DNA from: Pseudomonadota bacterium | Lineage (GTDB): Bacteria > Desulfobacterota > Binatia > Binatales > Binataceae | Reading direction: 5' to 3' | DNA length: 64,000 nt | Assembly: GCA_021323945.1 (NCBI GenBank) | Contig: JAJPKA010000002.1 | Coordinates: 354,923 to 418,922 of the forward strand | Part shown: positions 3,042 to 53,705 of the stretch, piece by piece | Layout: each line of letters begins with the position of its first letter | Position numbering within the stretch: position 1 is the first letter of the stretch | Program-made: the position numbers and the translations under genes | The notes under the pieces: generated by a model | Told to the model about the DNA's origin: nothing | The model's database searches: none | Seen by the model: the letters and a program-made list of their open reading frames with translations, nothing else

Positions 3042-4097
<1,056 letters not shown>

Positions 4098-4180
4098 AAC
4101 GCATTATTTCAAATGCTCGAGACAGGTGAAACCCGCCGCCGGGTCTAGAAACTCATTGTCGCAGTCACTAAACGGTCGAG

Positions 4181-4528
4181 TTGAATCCAGCACAGCCAGG
4201 ACGTCAAATGCGCCAGTTCAATGAGCAGGCAGACGCCACCACGGTCCAGGTCACCGTGGGCGAAGTATTCCAGATTTACCTTGCTGAAAACCCCACAACA
4301 GGCTTTCGATGGCGGCTGGACTGCGCGGGGGCGCCGACTTGTTCACTCATAGATGATTACTTCTCGGTACCCGGTAGGCTCCCCGGGGGGCCGGGAATTC
4401 ATCATTGGAATTTCAAGGCAGTGGCCTCAGGCAGCACAACAATTTGCCTAAGCTACGCGCGGCGTTGGCAGAATAGCGCGCCGGCGCGAACCTTCCGATT
4501 GGAAATTCGCGCCGGTGGCCAAAGTTGA
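4181..4528 (+). CDS. Chagasin-family cysteine peptidase inhibitor (MEROPS I42)
   Basis: 115 aa. Diagnostic NPTTG(F/Y)xW motif (AENPTTGFRWRL). Size and beta-rich composition typical of chagasin/ICP. No signal peptide. Confidence 0.7.
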   Translation: MNPAQPGRQMRQFNEQADATTVQVTVGEVFQIYLAENPTTGFRWRLDCAGAPTCSLIDDYFSVPGRLPGGPGIHHWNFKAVASGSTTICLSYARRWQNSAPARTFRLEIRAGGQS

Positions 4529-4536
4529 TTGGGGTT

Positions 4537-5298
4537 CTAAAGCACGAGGCGGATGGTCCAGAAATCATCGGAAAGGTTCGGGTCAGTCAAATAGGTATAT
4601 GGCATGGTGAAGTACCCAGCCATTCCCCAGTCAGTACCCCAGGAGTTGCGCACGATAAATCTCTGTTGCGCATCATCATAGCCGACCGCCAGTACTGCAT
4701 GGCCACCTATCTCCTGTTCATTCGGACCCGGCATATTCACCTGGCCAGTCTGAGCAACTTGCTGACTCTCGAAGCTTTCATATACCGAGAAACCGAAAAC
4801 GAAGGGGTAGCCGGAAGCCAGGCAGCCTTTCATCTGAATGAGATTGCGCGAGACCCGCTGGTACTGAATCACCTTGTACTTCTTAGCGTCATTGTACACT
4901 TTCTGGGGTGGTTTTTCGGCAAACTTCGCAATGTCGTAGGGCCACTCAGTTTCGGGCACGTCGCCCTGCTTTGCCACGCTTTTAATGCCATCGCGGATCA
5001 TAGCGCCGCTGTCGGTATTCACCGTGCCCTCGATGACTCGTTCGTTGTAATAGATGAACAAACGAGAGGGTACAAAATTAGGCTTGTGTTCCTTCATCCG
5101 GTCGAACTGAATCGCCCCCGCGATCGCATTTGCCGTACAACTGCCCAGCTGTCCTTGGTCATAAACCGGCGGACAAGCGGGGCGCAGGTCGACCTGAGGG
5201 GGAAGCACTCCCAGGTTGACCAAAGGCGCCGCATATAGATGGTCTCGATGGTCCGGTAGGTCCGGAATCCATCCAAAGCGTTGAATCTTGTGCCCCAT
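4537..5298 (-). CDS. Papain-family (C1A) cysteine peptidase lacking signal peptide and prodomain
   Basis: 253 aa. Catalytic Cys motif QGQLGSCTANA, His motif GGHAVLAVGYD, Asn/Trp motif NSWGTDWGMAGYF. The mature domain begins about 25 aa from the start. Confidence 0.85.
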   Translation of the reverse strand: MGHKIQRFGWIPDLPDHRDHLYAAPLVNLGVLPPQVDLRPACPPVYDQGQLGSCTANAIAGAIQFDRMKEHKPNFVPSRLFIYYNERVIEGTVNTDSGAMIRDGIKSVAKQGDVPETEWPYDIAKFAEKPPQKVYNDAKKYKVIQYQRVSRNLIQMKGCLASGYPFVFGFSVYESFESQQVAQTGQVNMPGPNEQEIGGHAVLAVGYDDAQQRFIVRNSWGTDWGMAGYFTMPYTYLTDPNLSDDFWTIRLVL

Positions 5299-5428
5299 TT
5301 TTCTCTCCTTTTCTTGTGAGTGAACTCTACGTTACGCCGAGTCAATCACTGCTTTACTCCGAGTTGATCGGCGCAACAAGGGTGCCAATCGCGCAAGTGC
5401 CAATTCCGCGTATTTATCCGCCGCTGAG

Positions 5429-5446
5429 TGCAAAGGTATCTTTGCA
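5429..5446. promoter_or_regulatory. Palindromic operator candidate TGCAAAG-gtat-CTTTGCA about 130 bp upstream of the C1 peptidase gene
   Basis: Perfect 7-bp inverted repeat in the 445-bp intergenic region. Shares its core with the 33528-33547 palindrome. Confidence 0.4.
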
Positions 5447-5742
5447 TCGGCTCGAGAATGCGAAGAGTGCATAGCAGTGAGTTGCTACACTACGCTCGCA
5501 AGTTAACAGCTCGTTGGGCCGTGCCAGCGGTGCAGCAGAAGATCGGTTACTGTTTCGAAATGAACCTCTATGCCGGGAAGGCGGAGGCTCGAATGAGAGT
5601 GGCGCCGTCCAGCAAGCAAAAAACAGCTCGTAGGCGGCCTGGACTAAAGAGTCGAACTATGGATTCATTTGCTGGCGCCGCTGCACAATTTTCAAATCTG
5701 CGAACGATGAGTGGTTGCGACAAACCGGTTTCTACCGATGAT

Positions 5743-6762
5743 TTAGCGGATCAGCGGGCTCAATCGATGAGCTATCACTTGCGATGCCTCCGAGACGATT
5801 TGCCGTACGATTTCTCCTGCGGGAAGCAGCTCCTTCACCAGACCGCAGGACTGTCCTGCATAAAAGGGCAAGCGTTCGATCTCGCCTTCGGCGTAATCCG
5901 TCGGCGGCAAAACACTGTAGTTGACTAACGGTATCTCGACGTCGGAGCGACGCAGCGTCACAATTGTCACTCCTTCGCCGGGCCTATTGCCTGGCGCTGG
6001 TCGTCCCACCCGTTCCCATTCCTCAACCACTTGCGTGCGCAGCACGCGGTGGGGAGCATCCGGCCATCCGACATCGAACAGCGTGGTGTGAATCGTGTCG
6101 GCAGCCTGGGCCCCAATAACGCGTTCCTTGTACGAGTTATGTGCTGATGCTTCGATTGTAGCGAGGAATCGGGTACCCAAGGCCCCGCCATCCGCTCCGA
6201 GTGCTAGTGCCGCGGCAAGTCCGCGACCGTCACCGATCCCGCCAGCCGCGACTAGCGGCACTTCCGGGAGGGCATCTCGGATCGCGGGAATTAGCGCAAA
6301 GGTGCTGACCTGGCCTCGCACATGGCCGCCCGCTTCGAAACCCTGTGCCATCACTACATCAACCCCTGCGTCCACCGCCCGGCGCGCCTCGTCGACTCCG
6401 CCACATTGCCAAATGACCTTTGACCCTACGGCTTGGAATGCGCGGATAGCGCTCTCATGCTCCCGGGGGTCGCCCCAAAAAAACGTCACGGCCGCCAGCT
6501 TGCTCTCAGCGACTATTTCGAGGATCCCAGGGCGAAGAAAAGGGACTATCAGGTTGGCGGCCAAGGGCTTGCTTGTGCACCTCTGCGCTGAAGCGATCTC
6601 GTTGCGAATTCCGTCGCGAGTGAAGGCAGCCAGGCCGATAGTGCCGAGACCGCCGGCTTCGGAGACCGCCGCGGCCAAACCGGACCCTGCAATCCCGCCC
6701 ATTCCGGCAGACACGATTGGAAATTCGATCCCGAAAATGTCGCACAGGCGAGTATGTAACAT
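5743..6762 (-). CDS. Nitronate monooxygenase (NMO, 2-nitropropane dioxygenase-like FMN TIM barrel)
   Basis: 339 aa. N-terminus LCDIFGIEFPIVSAGMGGIAGSGLAAAVSEAGGLGTIG is typical of the NMO/FabK family. Confidence 0.85.
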   Translation of the reverse strand: MLHTRLCDIFGIEFPIVSAGMGGIAGSGLAAAVSEAGGLGTIGLAAFTRDGIRNEIASAQRCTSKPLAANLIVPFLRPGILEIVAESKLAAVTFFWGDPREHESAIRAFQAVGSKVIWQCGGVDEARRAVDAGVDVVMAQGFEAGGHVRGQVSTFALIPAIRDALPEVPLVAAGGIGDGRGLAAALALGADGGALGTRFLATIEASAHNSYKERVIGAQAADTIHTTLFDVGWPDAPHRVLRTQVVEEWERVGRPAPGNRPGEGVTIVTLRRSDVEIPLVNYSVLPPTDYAEGEIERLPFYAGQSCGLVKELLPAGEIVRQIVSEASQVIAHRLSPLIR

Positions 6763-32228: not shown

Positions 32229-33515
32229 CTAGCCCCAGTTGTTCCGGGCCCACAACACGAGGTCGATCATAGGTGATCCAGCTGCAGCGACATTATTGTC
32301 TTCGGGCCCATTCCACAAGGGAAAATCCCATTCCTGTTCCTCGGCGGAGGCGACGCCGACCAGCGACGGATAGTCCTCGCCGTCCCACCACCCGAAAAAC
32401 GGGCCGCCAGAGTCGCCGGCGGTCACATCGCCGTTGTCGGTCTCGAGCTCCATCGCAGCGCCATCTTCGTCGTCATCGTGGAAGCTGATCCCTCCTTGCC
32501 ACGAGGGCCGCTCGCCTTTAGCGATGGCGCTTGCATAACCCACGAAGCTCCAGTAGTTACCGTCGTTCCAACTGTCGTCGTAGGTCTCGCCGCCGAACCA
32601 TCCGAGGAAGTCACCCAGCGGATCGATAAGATGCAGCACCGCAAAGTCCCAAGCGGGTCGGTCCACATCGGGGGCGGGCTCCTGGTAGTAGGCCGCCGCT
32701 GCGTCGACGTAGGAGTAGACATTCGGACCCAGCGTTGAGACGCCATTGAAGTAGGCCGGCACAAACTGGATCATTCCCGGGTTTGCACCCCACGGCACCG
32801 CGTGCGAAGCTGTCAGCACGATATCGCGCGACACCAGCACGCCAGTTGCTCTCCACGACGGCACGAAACTGTACGGGTCGTTGTAAGAAAAGATTCGGCC
32901 AATGCATTGCCATGGATAGCCGGTGGGGTAAAAGGGCTGGCGTACGTCGTTGCCGAAAATATACAGCGGTCGCACACGTTTGCCGTTCACCCGCCGCATG
33001 GTTGGGCGAGGCAGACGCGCTGCCATTTTGGGATGGTAAATTATGTCGGCCCACTCGGGAATTTTGGGCGGCGGAAGCGGCAGGGTGGGTGAGCTGACCT
33101 TGAGCTCGTCCCGTTTGAGGCGCCGGGTTTCCGTGAGCGGCAGACCCCGCATCAGCTTGTGTTCGCGACAAATCTGAAAAGATCGCATGCCGTTTACACT
33201 GCTGATTTCGTGGATGATCGTGTCGGTGTTTACCGAGCCTGCTACTGTGAAGCTGTTGGCGGACTTCAGCTTATGCAGTGCGGTCGGCAAAGGTTGGTGT
33301 TTGATAATGTTCTCCAGCCTGAGGATGGCGTCCGCGCGCATCGGCGGCGGCACCTTTGTCCCCGTGTTTACCTGGGTTTTGCTCATTGCTCTTTCCTCCG
33401 ACCGTGACCAGCGGCCTCGCACTTCTTCCACTCGAAGGGGGAGCAACGCGGGTGCCATTGTCGCGCCCTTGATCTGTGGGGCTACGTGGCCAAGAGCTGA
33501 TGATCTCCATTGCAA
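32229..33515 (-). CDS. Trypsin-like (S1/chymotrypsin-fold) serine peptidase with ~200-aa N-terminal extension, no signal peptide
   Basis: Catalytic triad motifs in order: His (VLTASHAV), Asp (DFAVLHL), Ser (GDSGGPFF). The start codon is uncertain (TTG at 33515, or internal Met at residues 19 or 44). Confidence 0.75.
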   Translation of the reverse strand: MQWRSSALGHVAPQIKGATMAPALLPLRVEEVRGRWSRSEERAMSKTQVNTGTKVPPPMRADAILRLENIIKHQPLPTALHKLKSANSFTVAGSVNTDTIIHEISSVNGMRSFQICREHKLMRGLPLTETRRLKRDELKVSSPTLPLPPPKIPEWADIIYHPKMAARLPRPTMRRVNGKRVRPLYIFGNDVRQPFYPTGYPWQCIGRIFSYNDPYSFVPSWRATGVLVSRDIVLTASHAVPWGANPGMIQFVPAYFNGVSTLGPNVYSYVDAAAAYYQEPAPDVDRPAWDFAVLHLIDPLGDFLGWFGGETYDDSWNDGNYWSFVGYASAIAKGERPSWQGGISFHDDDEDGAAMELETDNGDVTAGDSGGPFFGWWDGEDYPSLVGVASAEEQEWDFPLWNGPEDNNVAAAGSPMIDLVLWARNNWG

Positions 33516-33527
33516 ACGCAGTTAGCA

Positions 33528-33547
33528 CTGCAAATTGTGGTTTGCAG
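33528..33547. promoter_or_regulatory. Palindromic operator candidate CTGCAAA-ttgtgg-TTTGCAG upstream of the S1 peptidase gene (additional TGCAAA half-site at 33511-33516)
   Basis: Perfect 7-bp inverted repeat seen directly. Same TGCAAA/TTTGCA core as the palindrome upstream of the C1 peptidase gene. Confidence 0.4.
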
Positions 33548-50874: not shown

Positions 50875-52047
50875 ATGGCGATTCAGGAAGGCGATGAGCT
50901 GTGGCGAGAAATCGTCGACAGCCTGACCGTTGGGATCGTTGCGGTCTCGCCCGAGCGCCAGGTGATCGCAATAAACTCGGCTGCAGAGACTCTGCTCGGG
51001 GTCTCACGTCTGCGGCGAACCCGGTTTGATTCCGTATTTCGACGCAACCAATGGCTGGCCGCCATGGTGGACAGGTGTCTCACTTCGGGTCAAAGCCTGC
51101 ATTATCCGGAAACCCCACTGGTACTCGGCCAACGTGAGGCACTGGTGACCGCAGCCGTGTCACCCCTGACGACCCAGACTGGAGAGACCAGCGGCGTGGT
51201 AATCTTGCTGCAAGACCTTTCCTATCAGCAGACGGCCGAACCCGGTCTCCGCGCCGAGCCTGAGGCGTTAAAGTTGTCGTCAGTTGGCCTTGCGCATGAG
51301 CTTAAAAATCCGTTGACCGGGATCAAGGGTGCCGCCGAACTGATCGCCGCAATGCTGCCCACGGATCCGCGAGCTCAGCAATATTGCCGACTTATCCTCG
51401 ATGGAGTGCAACGAATCACCTCATTACTTGAAGAGGCTTTAGCTGTGTCAGGACCCTTGCGGCTGCGTACCGAGCCGGTGAATATTCATCAAGTCCTGCA
51501 TCAAGCACTCAGAATGGCGGGCGCATATCCGGTTCCTCCCCAGGGGATTGCGATAGAACAGTTATTTGACCCCAGTTTGCCCGAGGTTATGGGTGATCCT
51601 GTCGCCCTTGAGCGCGTCTTTCTCAATTTGATCCGCAACGGGCTCGAGGCAATCGCTGCCGTTTCCGACGCGTCCGCCAAAGACACCGGCTCGGCAGTTG
51701 AACGGCCTGCCCGGCCACTGCGCAAGCTTATCCTAAAGACCGGCTTGGAGCCTCAACTACGGATGAACGCGCAGGGGCGTAGGGTGCAATTTCTGCGCGT
51801 TGAGATCAGCGACTCGGGGAAGGGCATGGCACCGGAGCAGTTCCAACAGCTCTTTACCCCTTTTTTTACTACCAAGCCCTCAGGTACAGGCCTCGGACTC
51901 GTGCTTAGTCGCCGGATCGTCGAGCAGCACGGCGGCAGGTTATGGGCGCAGCTGGGTGGTACCGGTCTTAGGGCGCCGAATGCGCGGGGCGAACAGCCGG
52001 CAGCCGGCATGACGTTCTGTGTTACTTTACCTATACGTTCAGATTAG
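50875..52047 (+). CDS. Sensor histidine kinase (PAS-HisKA-HATPase; NtrB/AtoS-like)
   Basis: H-box HELKNPLTGIKGAAELI, N/G1/G2 boxes (ISDSGKGMAPE…GTGLGL). No TM segments, so likely cytoplasmic. Confidence 0.8.
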   Translation: MAIQEGDELWREIVDSLTVGIVAVSPERQVIAINSAAETLLGVSRLRRTRFDSVFRRNQWLAAMVDRCLTSGQSLHYPETPLVLGQREALVTAAVSPLTTQTGETSGVVILLQDLSYQQTAEPGLRAEPEALKLSSVGLAHELKNPLTGIKGAAELIAAMLPTDPRAQQYCRLILDGVQRITSLLEEALAVSGPLRLRTEPVNIHQVLHQALRMAGAYPVPPQGIAIEQLFDPSLPEVMGDPVALERVFLNLIRNGLEAIAAVSDASAKDTGSAVERPARPLRKLILKTGLEPQLRMNAQGRRVQFLRVEISDSGKGMAPEQFQQLFTPFFTTKPSGTGLGLVLSRRIVEQHGGRLWAQLGGTGLRAPNARGEQPAAGMTFCVTLPIRSD

Positions 52048-52187: not shown

Positions 52188-53705
52188 ATGAGTTGCGCCC
52201 CATCCAACGACTCGCTGCGAGCCGGCGAATCTAGACCACTGGTTCTTATTGCCGACGACGACCCCGGAATACGGTTGGTCTTGCGGCATCGGCTGGACGC
52301 TGCGGGGTACGAAGTCGAAGAGACGGCTGATAGCGCCACCACACTCCGGGCCCTCATCAGCAATCGTTACGATGTTGCCCTTGTCGACATCATGATGCCG
52401 GGTGCCGGCGGCCTCGAGATACTCTCCAAGGCTCGAGATGAGGGGACACGCACGCTGGTAATCGTGATTACCGCGGCCAACACGATGAACAACGCAGTTG
52501 AGGCGATGAAGCGGGGCGCTCACGATTATCTGACCAAGCCTTTCGAGAACCTTGATCTGGTCGCTGCCGCGGTCGGGCGGGCAATCGAGGTGGCAGGGCT
52601 CGAGAAGTTCGTGCGCGGGCTGGCCGGTTCTGCCACTGATTTCTCACGTCTGCGCGAGGAGGTGAACCGTCAGCTCGTCGGCGGGGAAATCATTGGGCGC
52701 AGTCCCGCCATGCAGGAGGTCTATAAGCTCATTGGGCGCGTCGTAACCAATGAGGCCACCGTGCTGGTGTGCGGTGAGAGTGGCACCGGCAAAGAGTTGG
52801 TAGCCCGCGCGATTCATTTCAAGTCGCCCCGCTGGCGAGGTCCGTTTGTTGCCGTCAACTGCTCGGCGATCCCGGCAGGTCTGCTCGAAAGCGAACTTTT
52901 TGGCCACGAACGGGGTGCCTTTACCGGGGCTAACGAGCGGCGAGCGGGCAAATTCGAACAGGCTGCTGGCGGCACTCTCTTCCTGGATGAGATCGGCGAC
53001 TTGCCGCTCGAGTTGCAACCCAAACTGCTGCGGGTACTGCAAGAACGGGAATTTTCGCGGGTCGGTGGTTTGGAGGTTTTGCACGCCCAGGCACGGATTA
53101 TAGCCGCTACCAATCATGATCTCGAAGCAGCAGTTGCGGCAGGTAGGTTCCGTGAAGATCTATACTTTCGCTTGCGTGTGATTCCTATCAACCTGCCGCC
53201 TTTACGACACCGCCGCGAGGATATTCCCGAACTAACCGACTACTTTATATCCAAGGCTGTGCGTGAAATGGGAGCGCACGCACGTTACGTCGCTCCTGAA
53301 GCTCGTGCCAAACTTCAGGCCTACGACTGGCCGGGCAATGTCCGCGAACTGGAGAATACCATCTTGCGCGCCGCGCTACTTACACCGAGCAATACCATCA
53401 GGGCCGAAGACATCGAGCTGCGGCACAGTCCGCTCCATTCGCGCTCAGAGCATCAGGCGGCCCAAGCTTCACTAACTGACCTGATTGGCCAGCGGATAAA
53501 TGAGATGTTGGAAAACAACAGTACCGAGCCGCGTGATCTCTACCAGAAGCTGATCGGTGAACTGGAGCGCCCGCTGATTGAAATGACGCTGCGGCGCGCT
53601 CGCGGTAATCAAGTTCACGCAGCTCGTATCCTGGGGCTCAATCGCAACACGCTGCGCAAGAAACTGGTTGAACACGGCATTCCGATCACCAAGCTCCCCA
53701 TATAA
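52188..53705 (+). CDS. Sigma-54-dependent Fis-family response regulator (NtrC-like: REC + AAA+ + HTH)
   Basis: REC with phospho-acceptor Asp. Walker A GESGTGKE, GAFTGA sigma-54 contact motif, C-terminal Fis-type HTH. Confidence 0.9.
   Translation: MSCAPSNDSLRAGESRPLVLIADDDPGIRLVLRHRLDAAGYEVEETADSATTLRALISNRYDVALVDIMMPGAGGLEILSKARDEGTRTLVIVITAANTMNNAVEAMKRGAHDYLTKPFENLDLVAAAVGRAIEVAGLEKFVRGLAGSATDFSRLREEVNRQLVGGEIIGRSPAMQEVYKLIGRVVTNEATVLVCGESGTGKELVARAIHFKSPRWRGPFVAVNCSAIPAGLLESELFGHERGAFTGANERRAGKFEQAAGGTLFLDEIGDLPLELQPKLLRVLQEREFSRVGGLEVLHAQARIIAATNHDLEAAVAAGRFREDLYFRLRVIPINLPPLRHRREDIPELTDYFISKAVREMGAHARYVAPEARAKLQAYDWPGNVRELENTILRAALLTPSNTIRAEDIELRHSPLHSRSEHQAAQASLTDLIGQRINEMLENNSTEPRDLYQKLIGELERPLIEMTLRRARGNQVHAARILGLNRNTLRKKLVEHGIPITKLPI

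Follow-up and report, generated by a model that had tools for sequence, protein, structure and literature searches.

Introduction

Chagasin and the related inhibitors of cysteine peptidases (ICPs) of family I42 are known from trypanosomatids and Entamoeba, where they accompany C1A cysteine peptidases of the cruzipain type. The protozoan inhibitors have no signal peptide and are thought to regulate an endogenous papain-family enzyme, and their targets are endo-lysosomal enzymes with signal peptides and I29 prodomains. The three contact loops of chagasin (L2, L4 and L6), their motifs and the role of L2 have been defined (PMC2607524). Here we describe a gene for an I42 inhibitor and a convergent gene for a C1A peptidase in a 64,000-nucleotide stretch of DNA (the window) from a Pseudomonadota soil bacterium (GTDB lineage Desulfobacterota; Binatia; Binatales; Binataceae; GenBank assembly GCA_021323945.1, contig JAJPKA010000002.1, positions 354,923 to 418,922, forward strand), together with related loci from other genomes and metagenomes. 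The two genes probably form a cognate, independently transcribed peptidase/inhibitor module that acts inside the cell.

The genes of the staphostatin-staphopain and Spi-SpeB pairs of Gram-positive cocci are organised in operons and co-transcribed from one strand. In the staphostatin system, as in the window, a bacterial cysteine peptidase is accompanied by a dedicated, genetically linked, signal-less endogenous inhibitor (PMC7863939), and Spi and SpeB follow the same pattern. Bacterial members of I42 itself include Pseudomonas aeruginosa ICP (2WGN), P. syringae Cip1 and P. putida Cpi1. The Pseudomonas chagasins are exported, as secreted proteins or lipoproteins, from organisms whose genomes lack C1A enzymes, and they act on host proteases; according to a 2016 paper the role of bacterial chagasins had not then been elucidated. 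Among peptidases, the relative to be compared is xylellain of Xylella fastidiosa (3OIS), which has been discussed as a plant-pathogen factor (PMC12090721). Short "xylellain-type" C1A peptidases are widespread in bacteria, are horizontally transferred and have also been acquired by large phages, and intracellular prokaryotic C1A enzymes lack signal peptides (Kordis and Turk, PMC10380794). Neither a bacterial I42-C1A gene pair nor a link between xylellain and a chagasin-type inhibitor turned up in the open-access papers searched.

The window inhibitor shares with the protozoan chagasins its family, its fold (template modelling score, TM, about 0.8) and the L2/L4/L6 set, with GGPG instead of GxGG at L4 and RRW instead of RPW at L6. 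In contrast to the protozoan systems, the two genes are linked tail to tail and the enzyme has neither a signal peptide nor an I29 prodomain; in both respects it resembles xylellain, which is likewise a single domain. The staphostatin and Spi pairs belong to other families: their peptidases are C47 or C10 enzymes, and as inhibitor they have either an I57 barrel of the lipocalin-like type or a homologue of the propeptide. Staphopain and SpeB are secreted zymogens with signal and propeptide, whereas the window peptidase has no export signal; its gene lies on the strand opposite to that of the inhibitor and encodes no signal or prodomain, and only the cytoplasmic inhibitor is common to both arrangements. 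Unlike the Pseudomonas chagasins, the window inhibitor is not Sec-exportable and is encoded beside an endogenous C1A gene, although a minority of the partner inhibitors at related loci share lipoprotein-like signals with them. The locus also differs from type II toxin-antitoxin systems, since its genes converge instead of being co-transcribed in one operon, and it has neither the DNA-binding domain of an antitoxin nor an association with mobile elements or defence islands.

The gene pair and its products

The pair consists of the following features.

4208..4528, + strand: I42 inhibitor gene, 106 amino acids (aa), without signal peptide; the alternative start TTG 4181 would give 115 aa
4289..4303, + strand: codons of the L2 loop NPTTG, followed by FRW; main active-site-blocking loop of chagasins
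4385..4396, + strand: codons of the L4 loop G-G-P-G, a variant of chagasin GxGG
4460..4468, + strand: codons of the L6 loop R-R-W, a variant of chagasin RPW/F
4529..4536, no strand: spacer of 8 bp between the convergent stops, TGA 4526-4528 (+) and TAG 4537-4539 (reverse complement)
4537..5298, - strand: C1A cysteine peptidase gene, 253 aa, single-domain, xylellain-type, without signal peptide or I29 prodomain
4645..4647, - strand: codon of Asn218, in RNSWG and followed by Trp220, invariant
4699..4701, - strand: codon of catalytic His200, in GGHAV, invariant
5137..5139, - strand: codon of catalytic Cys54, in QGQLGSC, invariant; Gln48 of the same motif is the oxyanion-hole residue
5206..5298, - strand: N-terminal extension RFGWIPDLPDHRDHLYAAP..., codons 1-31, before the papain-like mature start LPPQVDLR; candidate mini-propeptide
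5303..5310, - strand: Shine-Dalgarno sequence AAGGAGAG, 4 nt before the peptidase ATG

Open reading frame (ORF) 4181-4528 matches the Pfam profile PF09394 (Inhibitor_I42) with an E-value of 1e-20 and 74.2 bits (cutoff 27.2) over profile positions 2-91 of 91. I42 was the only domain found in the inhibitor by profile search, which returned no DNA-binding domain. With phmmer, chains of chagasin, of trypanosomatid and Pseudomonas ICP and of amoebiasin in the PDB were matched at E-values of about 5e-10. The AlphaFold2 (AF2) model of the 106-aa protein has a predicted local distance difference test score (pLDDT) of 92 and eight strands arranged in the immunoglobulin-like eight-strand beta fold. Its top Foldseek matches were EhICP2 (3M88, 3M86) and chagasin (2NQD, 2NNR), with E-values of 1e-10 to 1e-8 and TM scores of 0.79-0.85. 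Profile, fold and L2 motif thus agree with membership of the family, and L4 and L6 are variants.

NPTTGFRW occupies residues 37-44 of the 115-aa reading; its NPTTG, the L2 motif, is exact and is 90-100% conserved among 62 partner inhibitors from related loci. Around L4 the window protein reads R-L-P-G-G-P-G, which keeps three of the four motif positions and has Pro at the third; the consensus of the partner family is P-G-x-G-G-x-H-x-W. In L6 the Arg is present in 100% and the Trp in 95% of partner inhibitors, and the Pro is replaced in the window protein. Across the 62 pairs, the columns that this fast-evolving inhibitor conserves are those of the three contact loops and their supports.

The inhibitor most likely starts at ATG 4208 and not at TTG 4181, because an AGGA lies 6 nt upstream of the ATG, gene callers and a 79%-identical orthologue agree on the 106-aa form, and homologues open with MRQFNEQ. 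The frame is closed by a stop three codons before the TTG, and the first 55 aa contain no hydrophobic stretch (maximum Kyte-Doolittle mean over 10 residues 1.3).

The peptidase matches PF00112 (Peptidase_C1) with an E-value of 1.3e-17 and 65 bits (cutoff 20.7), and a PDB search with it returned 156 C1A chains at E < 0.01. Its closest solved relative is xylellain, aligned over query residues 6-252 with an E-value of 7e-78, and the cathepsins follow at about 1e-9. The alignment to 3OIS takes in the N-terminal GW/YxPDxxDxRD segment. Full-length similarity that includes the short N-terminal extension, together with the single domain, places the enzyme among the xylellain-type peptidases. Q48, C54, H200, N218 and W220 stand in canonical order and motifs and are invariant in 30 homologues. 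More than 8000 clusters of homologues were found; the best 120 share 72-99% identity with the window enzyme and range in length from 248 to 266 aa. No second I42 or C1 gene was found in the window.

The 253 aa are the longest ORF possible, as the frame is closed by a stop 12 codons before the ATG. Its first 55 aa have no hydrophobic stretch (maximum 10-residue mean 1.8), and there is no I29 prodomain, merely 31 residues preceding the start of the mature domain in a frame that is closed upstream. An earlier note on this DNA, made by reading the letters, had described a convergent pair with stops 8 bp apart, consisting of a 115-aa chagasin-family protein with NPTTG(F)xW and a C1A peptidase that keeps its Cys/His/Asn motifs and has no signal peptide or inhibitory prodomain. 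The pair, its spacing, both family assignments and the plain N-terminus of the enzyme are confirmed by the searches above; the inhibitor ORF is real as well, and only its length has to be corrected, to the 106 aa of the likelier start.

Linkage across genomes

Related loci were collected from both sides of the pair. The peptidase-led scan took one genome per species and gave 49 loci, 46 of them with a usable downstream flank, which were searched with an I42 profile built here. An I42 gene adjoins the peptidase in 15 of these 46 loci, including all 10 Acidobacteriota loci that have a downstream flank. The further linked loci belong to Dehalococcoidales and Ktedonobacteraceae (Chloroflexota), Verrucomicrobiota, a deltaproteobacterium and a Nitrosocosmicus archaeon, whose copy is decayed. 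When the neighbouring ORFs of the genome loci were clustered, I42 was the sole neighbour conserved across phyla; the same clustering, used to look for another inhibitor family at the loci without I42, brought out no other cross-phylum neighbour. In a neighbour-joining tree the I42-linked peptidases are spread over several clades.

The inhibitor-led scan searched metagenome contigs with an inhibitor alignment and the pattern NPT[TA]GFRW, and gave 80 loci. The peptidase lies next door in 71 of them, the flanks are too short in 7, and 2 have full flanks without a peptidase, so that 71 of 73 informative loci are paired. Since the two scans, from the peptidase and from the inhibitor, are independent, the pairing is beyond chance and the two genes are a conserved functional pair.

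Exceptions show signs of decay or loss of one partner. In the Nitrosocosmicus metagenome-assembled genome (our locus label L006; 5974-6210, - strand) a 79-aa I42 remnant without the NPTTG region lies 205 nt from the peptidase. Metagenomic locus L081 equals L080 up to nt 3312 and then diverges at the expected peptidase site. At L120 the flanks of the I42 gene are complete, yet they hold no peptidase gene.

Synteny around the pair is identical in a sister genome (L134). Elsewhere it stands in contexts that are unrelated among lineages, for example beside secE-nusG-rplKA, and so behaves as a two-gene cassette. Base composition was considered as a sign of a horizontal-transfer island; the guanine-cytosine content of the pair, 0.52-0.55, is barely under that of the flanks (about 0.56) and is not diagnostic.

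Peptidase homologues that keep the N-terminal motif are also encoded on a 595-kb uncultured phage (LR756511.1; L132 2977-3762; 59% identity), on Burkholderia phage FLC9 (L133 2962-3753; 44%) and on pKVP1, a 1.7-Mb linear plasmid of Streptomyces viridifaciens (L131 2983-3795; 60%). No I42 gene is adjacent at these three loci, and the small convergent ORFs beside the pKVP1 and FLC9 homologues match neither I42 nor another Pfam family.

Co-divergence and strand arrangement

In 62 non-redundant pairs, the pairwise identities of the peptidase correlate with those of the inhibitor (Mantel r 0.75, with 0 of 999 permutations as high). Mean identity in these pairs is 0.44 for the inhibitor and 0.66 for the peptidase, so the inhibitor evolves faster. 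Both genes are under purifying selection: against the sister genome, the ratio of nonsynonymous to synonymous substitution rates (dN/dS) of the inhibitor is 0.14, and that of the peptidase, at 0.03, is as low as the value for NuoA.

The strand arrangement is conserved too. All 71 metagenomic pairs have their genes on opposite strands, 54 convergent and 17 divergent, with gaps, measured between tblastn match coordinates, of 12-321 bp (mostly below 80 bp) in the convergent and 286-312 bp in the divergent pairs. Of the genomic pairs, 13 of 15 are convergent and 2 of 15 lie on the same strand. The 3' ends of the ORFs overlap in six convergent genomic pairs, with 26-41 nt between the stop codons. 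These overlaps are found in one Acidobacteriota clade (L027, L030, L032, L037, L038 and L047; about 5746-5792 in locus coordinates), at stop distances of -26 to -41 nt. Peptidases of the same clade end in a C-terminal tail of about 15 residues that is rich in Ala and Lys (...TEAGAKSHAGAAKANA).

An AT-rich clade (L057, L064-L066, L070, L072, L085, L087, L092, L096, L097 and L105) has the pair in divergent orientation, with an intergenic region of about 290 bp that contains conserved blocks. A TATAAT is placed about 55 nt before the inhibitor ATG, and an invariant CACCTCCTT (AAGGAGGTG on the peptidase strand) lies about 130 nt upstream of the peptidase start.

Export signals and cysteines

As neither window frame can carry an N-terminal export signal, both proteins are made in the cytoplasm here. 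None of more than 100 peptidase homologues examined has a signal peptide. The earlier note was also right that bacterial chagasins are usually periplasmic proteins or lipoproteins, in that the characterised Pseudomonas homologues are secreted or lipoproteins, and its description of this inhibitor as cytoplasmic agrees with a product that is not exportable; carried over to the whole family, that description is too simple. A lipoprotein-like N-terminal extension is present in 4 of the 15 genomic I42 partners (L027 5746-6195, L030 5758-6210, L032 5758-6255 and L038 738-1532, all - strand), and about 11 of the 80 metagenomic partners (e.g. L116, L118 and L119) have an in-frame hydrophobic or lipoprotein-like extension. 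The lipoprotein-type signal (in L027, MVRERLILGAGLLILASC) ends just before an internal Met that is the start of the signal-less versions. These extended genes may use alternative initiation to give exported and cytoplasmic forms, or may have gained export recently.

The window peptidase contains three cysteines and none of the three disulfides of papain. Among 215 homologues, residues 114 and 134 (codons 4957-4959 and 4897-4899, - strand) covary strictly, with Cys at both in 150, at neither in about 50 and mixed states in 13. Cys114/Cys134 is kept in about 70% of homologues, and both residues are Val in the window enzyme and its clade. For C42 and C159, 204 of the 215 have a cysteine at both positions. 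These residues may form disulfides particular to the family, or a redox pair, and so matter for the question of where the enzyme acts; the picture of compartments across the family is mixed.

The N-terminal extension and its possible role in latency

The 31 residues before the mature start are conserved as strongly as any other part of the peptidase. G9, W10, D13, P15, D16, R18, D19, Y22 and P25 are invariant in 30 homologues, and each of the 49 genome loci encodes the extension, with a start a few residues before YGW(I/V)PDxPDxRD. Part of the N-terminal sequence of xylellain reportedly blocks the active site, and a bound ribonucleotide is reported to modulate its activity (Leite et al., FEBS Lett 2013). 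The 253 aa may therefore include a mini-propeptide. The invariant extension and the occlusion reported for xylellain make it unsafe to call the window peptidase "constitutively active", as the earlier note had done.

Regulatory region of the window pair

A conserved block emerged when the 444 bp that precede the peptidase gene were aligned with the sister genome. Two elements were recognised.

5373..5387, - strand: candidate sigma-54 promoter TGGCACCCTTGTTGC (-24/-12), about 75 nt upstream of the peptidase ATG
5429..5446, no strand: TGCAAAGGTATCTTTGCA, a perfect palindrome that precedes the sigma-54 element by 42 nt; candidate activator enhancer site, partly conserved in the sister genome

The exact sigma-54 pattern (TGGCAC-N5-TTGC) occurs twice in the 64 kb against 0.13 expected, and the element at the peptidase is kept in the sister genome although dS is about 1. 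A plausible reading of this promoter motif is that it serves as a lineage-specific way to keep the peptidase gene silent until an activator fires. As a family-wide feature the element was rejected, being present at 0 of 101 other loci.

The second match, at 33443-33457 (- strand), has a similar palindrome, TGCAAA-N6-TTTGCA, upstream (33529-33546); the palindromes lie 42-72 nt upstream of the two sigma-54 elements. Behind this element, ORF 32229-33386 (- strand) encodes 385 aa with trypsin-like motifs (Pfam Trypsin, 22.5 bits) and no signal peptide. Two sigma-54/palindrome sites, each before a signal-less peptidase gene, may make up a small sigma-54 "protease regulon". The window also encodes an NtrB/NtrC-type pair, namely a PAS-HisKA-HATPase kinase (50875-52047, + strand) and a regulator with receiver, sigma-54 activator and Fis-type helix-turn-helix domains (52188-53705, + strand), from which it follows that the organism uses sigma-54 activators.

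ORF 5428-5928 (+ strand, 166 aa, no Pfam match) extends over the 3' end of the NMO gene and the region upstream of the peptidase. One pipeline annotates it in the source assembly as a gene of 156 aa, but its position on top of the conserved promoter block makes it probably spurious.

Between 3900 and 5800 no terminator-like site was found, and the promoter and terminator scan gave nothing above shuffled expectation. As a terminator does not fit into the 8-bp gap, the two transcripts are predicted to overlap or to end inside the partner gene. Transcript overlap and separate regulation of the two genes would follow from this layout. A GC-rich hairpin with a 12-bp outer stem lies at 4479-4517, within the last 16 codons of the inhibitor gene, with a z-score of only -2.3. 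On the minus strand the hairpin would form about 20 nt past the peptidase stop, with UAUUCU behind it, and is possibly a terminator of the peptidase mRNA embedded in the partner gene. An Rfam search of the whole window returned nothing at gathering score, and positions 4000-5800 gave one chance-level match (E 0.1).

Proposed mechanism and alternative explanations

In the mechanism that we propose, a short single-domain xylellain-type peptidase and a dedicated, tight-binding I42 inhibitor would meet in the cytoplasm. The loops L2 (NPTTG), L4 (GGPG) and L6 (RRW) would insert into the active-site cleft of the enzyme, reversibly and at 1:1, as those of chagasin do with cruzipain, and binding would buffer peptidase activity. 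With the genes on opposite strands under separate promoters, the cell could set the ratio of protease to inhibitor. In this lineage the peptidase would be driven by the sigma-54 promoter with its upstream palindrome and stay silent until the activator fires, and the promoter of the inhibitor would lie in the 110-bp region shared with a divergent Mrp/NUBPL gene. The 8-bp tail-to-tail spacing would force the transcripts to overlap, and antisense overlap would possibly help to set the ratio. A second layer of latency would probably come from the extension of about 31 residues, acting as a short intramolecular blocker by analogy with what is reported of xylellain. Activity would appear once the peptidase is induced above the capacity of the inhibitor, or once the inhibitor is removed. 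Action in the cytoplasm, the function of the N-terminal extension, sigma-54 control and antisense overlap all enter this scheme as predicted elements, and a physiological role in starvation or stress proteolysis is our guess.

Several points weigh against this mechanism. About two thirds of the genome loci have the peptidase without an adjacent I42 gene (Actinobacteria, Betaproteobacteria and the phage copies), and a peptidase without a linked inhibitor is evidently tolerated there. The window L4 (GGPG) and L6 (RRW) depart from canonical GxGG and RPW. We infer binding and inhibition of the peptidase by the I42 protein from homology and linkage. The AF2 model of the peptidase, made with 30 homologues, has a mean pLDDT of 53 and is too poor for judging the fold or the N-terminal segment, whose occluding role is a candidate function suggested by the report of Leite et al. 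on xylellain. The sigma-54 promoter matches the consensus, but just one sister lineage conserves it. Finally, the Cys114/Cys134 pair and the lipoprotein-like inhibitors, found in 4 of 15 genomic partners, are hints that parts of the family operate outside the cytoplasm.

The mixed picture of compartments is the reason why the main rival is a staphostatin-like guard, in which the peptidase would work outside the cell after non-classical secretion, in vesicles or upon lysis, and the inhibitor would protect the cytoplasm of the producer from premature activity. For the xylellain-like peptidases of plant pathogens secretion has indeed been proposed, and their scores are those of non-classically secreted proteins (PMC12090721); secreted staphopains have endogenous inhibitors in the staphostatins (PMC7863939); and lipoprotein-type I42 partners, known from 4 of 15 genomic and some metagenomic loci, would be expected if the enzyme crosses the envelope. 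The possible disulfides Cys114/Cys134 (about 70% of homologues) and C42/C159 (95%) point in the same direction, but the window enzyme has Val at both positions of the former and its inhibitor is not exportable. Moreover, the homologues examined, more than 100, lack signal peptides throughout, no secretion-system genes are found nearby, and the strong constraint on the enzyme (dN/dS 0.03; 66% mean identity across phyla) would be unusual for an extracellular effector. On balance we regard this explanation as unlikely. The earlier note suggested a toxin/antidote-like logic. In a module of this kind, or one for abortive infection, the peptidase would be a self-toxin and the inhibitor its antidote, and the cell would die or be arrested once the inhibitor is lost or titrated away, for instance when a phage infects. 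A compact cassette in unrelated contexts, scattered on the peptidase tree in a manner consistent with horizontal transfer, an inhibitor that evolves faster than its enzyme and homologous peptidases in jumbo phages could be read in this way, as could the rarity of intracellular peptidase inhibitors (PMC3901451). This logic nevertheless fits poorly with genes on opposite strands (71 of 71 and 13 of 15), which are not an autoregulated operon, with housekeeping neighbours, stable synteny and no mobile-element genes, with an inhibitor that has no DNA-binding domain, with a peptidase as constrained as NuoA and with the many homologues that have no linked inhibitor. Neither protein matches PADLOC, and a PHROGs search found only a generic phage peptidase family. 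We therefore hold it to be very unlikely.

A target outside the organism, such as a papain-like protease of a protist, plant or competitor, would make the inhibitor a counterpart of Pseudomonas Cip1 and Cpi1, with the adjacency due to co-regulation or chance. Characterised bacterial chagasins do act on host proteases, in organisms without C1A enzymes, and chagasins are broad-spectrum C1A inhibitors (PMC7863939). Set against the adjacency in 71 of 73 loci, the co-divergence of the two proteins, the missing export signal and an endogenous C1A target encoded 8 bp away, such a role appears extremely improbable. A bolder form of the intracellular scheme, which we consider unlikely, is a widespread prokaryotic "protease switch" of soil bacteria and some archaea, in which an inhibitor-held cytoplasmic papain-like enzyme would be released by a signal for programmed self-proteolysis in starvation turnover, dormancy entry or cell death. 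The signal here would be the sigma-54 activator, which would also switch on the second, trypsin-like signal-less peptidase, and the opposite-strand, often 3'-overlapping genes would give mutual antisense control of the enzyme-to-inhibitor ratio. If true, such a switch would parallel caspase/IAP or calpain/calpastatin logic in bacteria and would assign prokaryotic chagasins a function inside their own cells.

Conclusions

Both protein families, and the pairing of a protease with its inhibitor as a kind of system, were known; the cross-phylum, opposite-strand module of a signal-less I42 inhibitor and a xylellain-type peptidase was not met with in the open-access literature searched. About 85 related loci define a signal-less I42 subfamily that is almost always encoded beside a highly conserved, signal-less papain-type peptidase, in at least four bacterial phyla and an archaeon. 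The pair gives prokaryotic chagasins a testable endogenous target; work on their bacterial members has until now dealt with exported proteins that inhibit host proteases. It also provides a handle on the xylellain-type peptidases, which have homologues in plant pathogens and jumbo phages. If the enzyme acts inside the cell, a regulated papain-like protease would join the short list of intracellular bacterial proteolytic systems.

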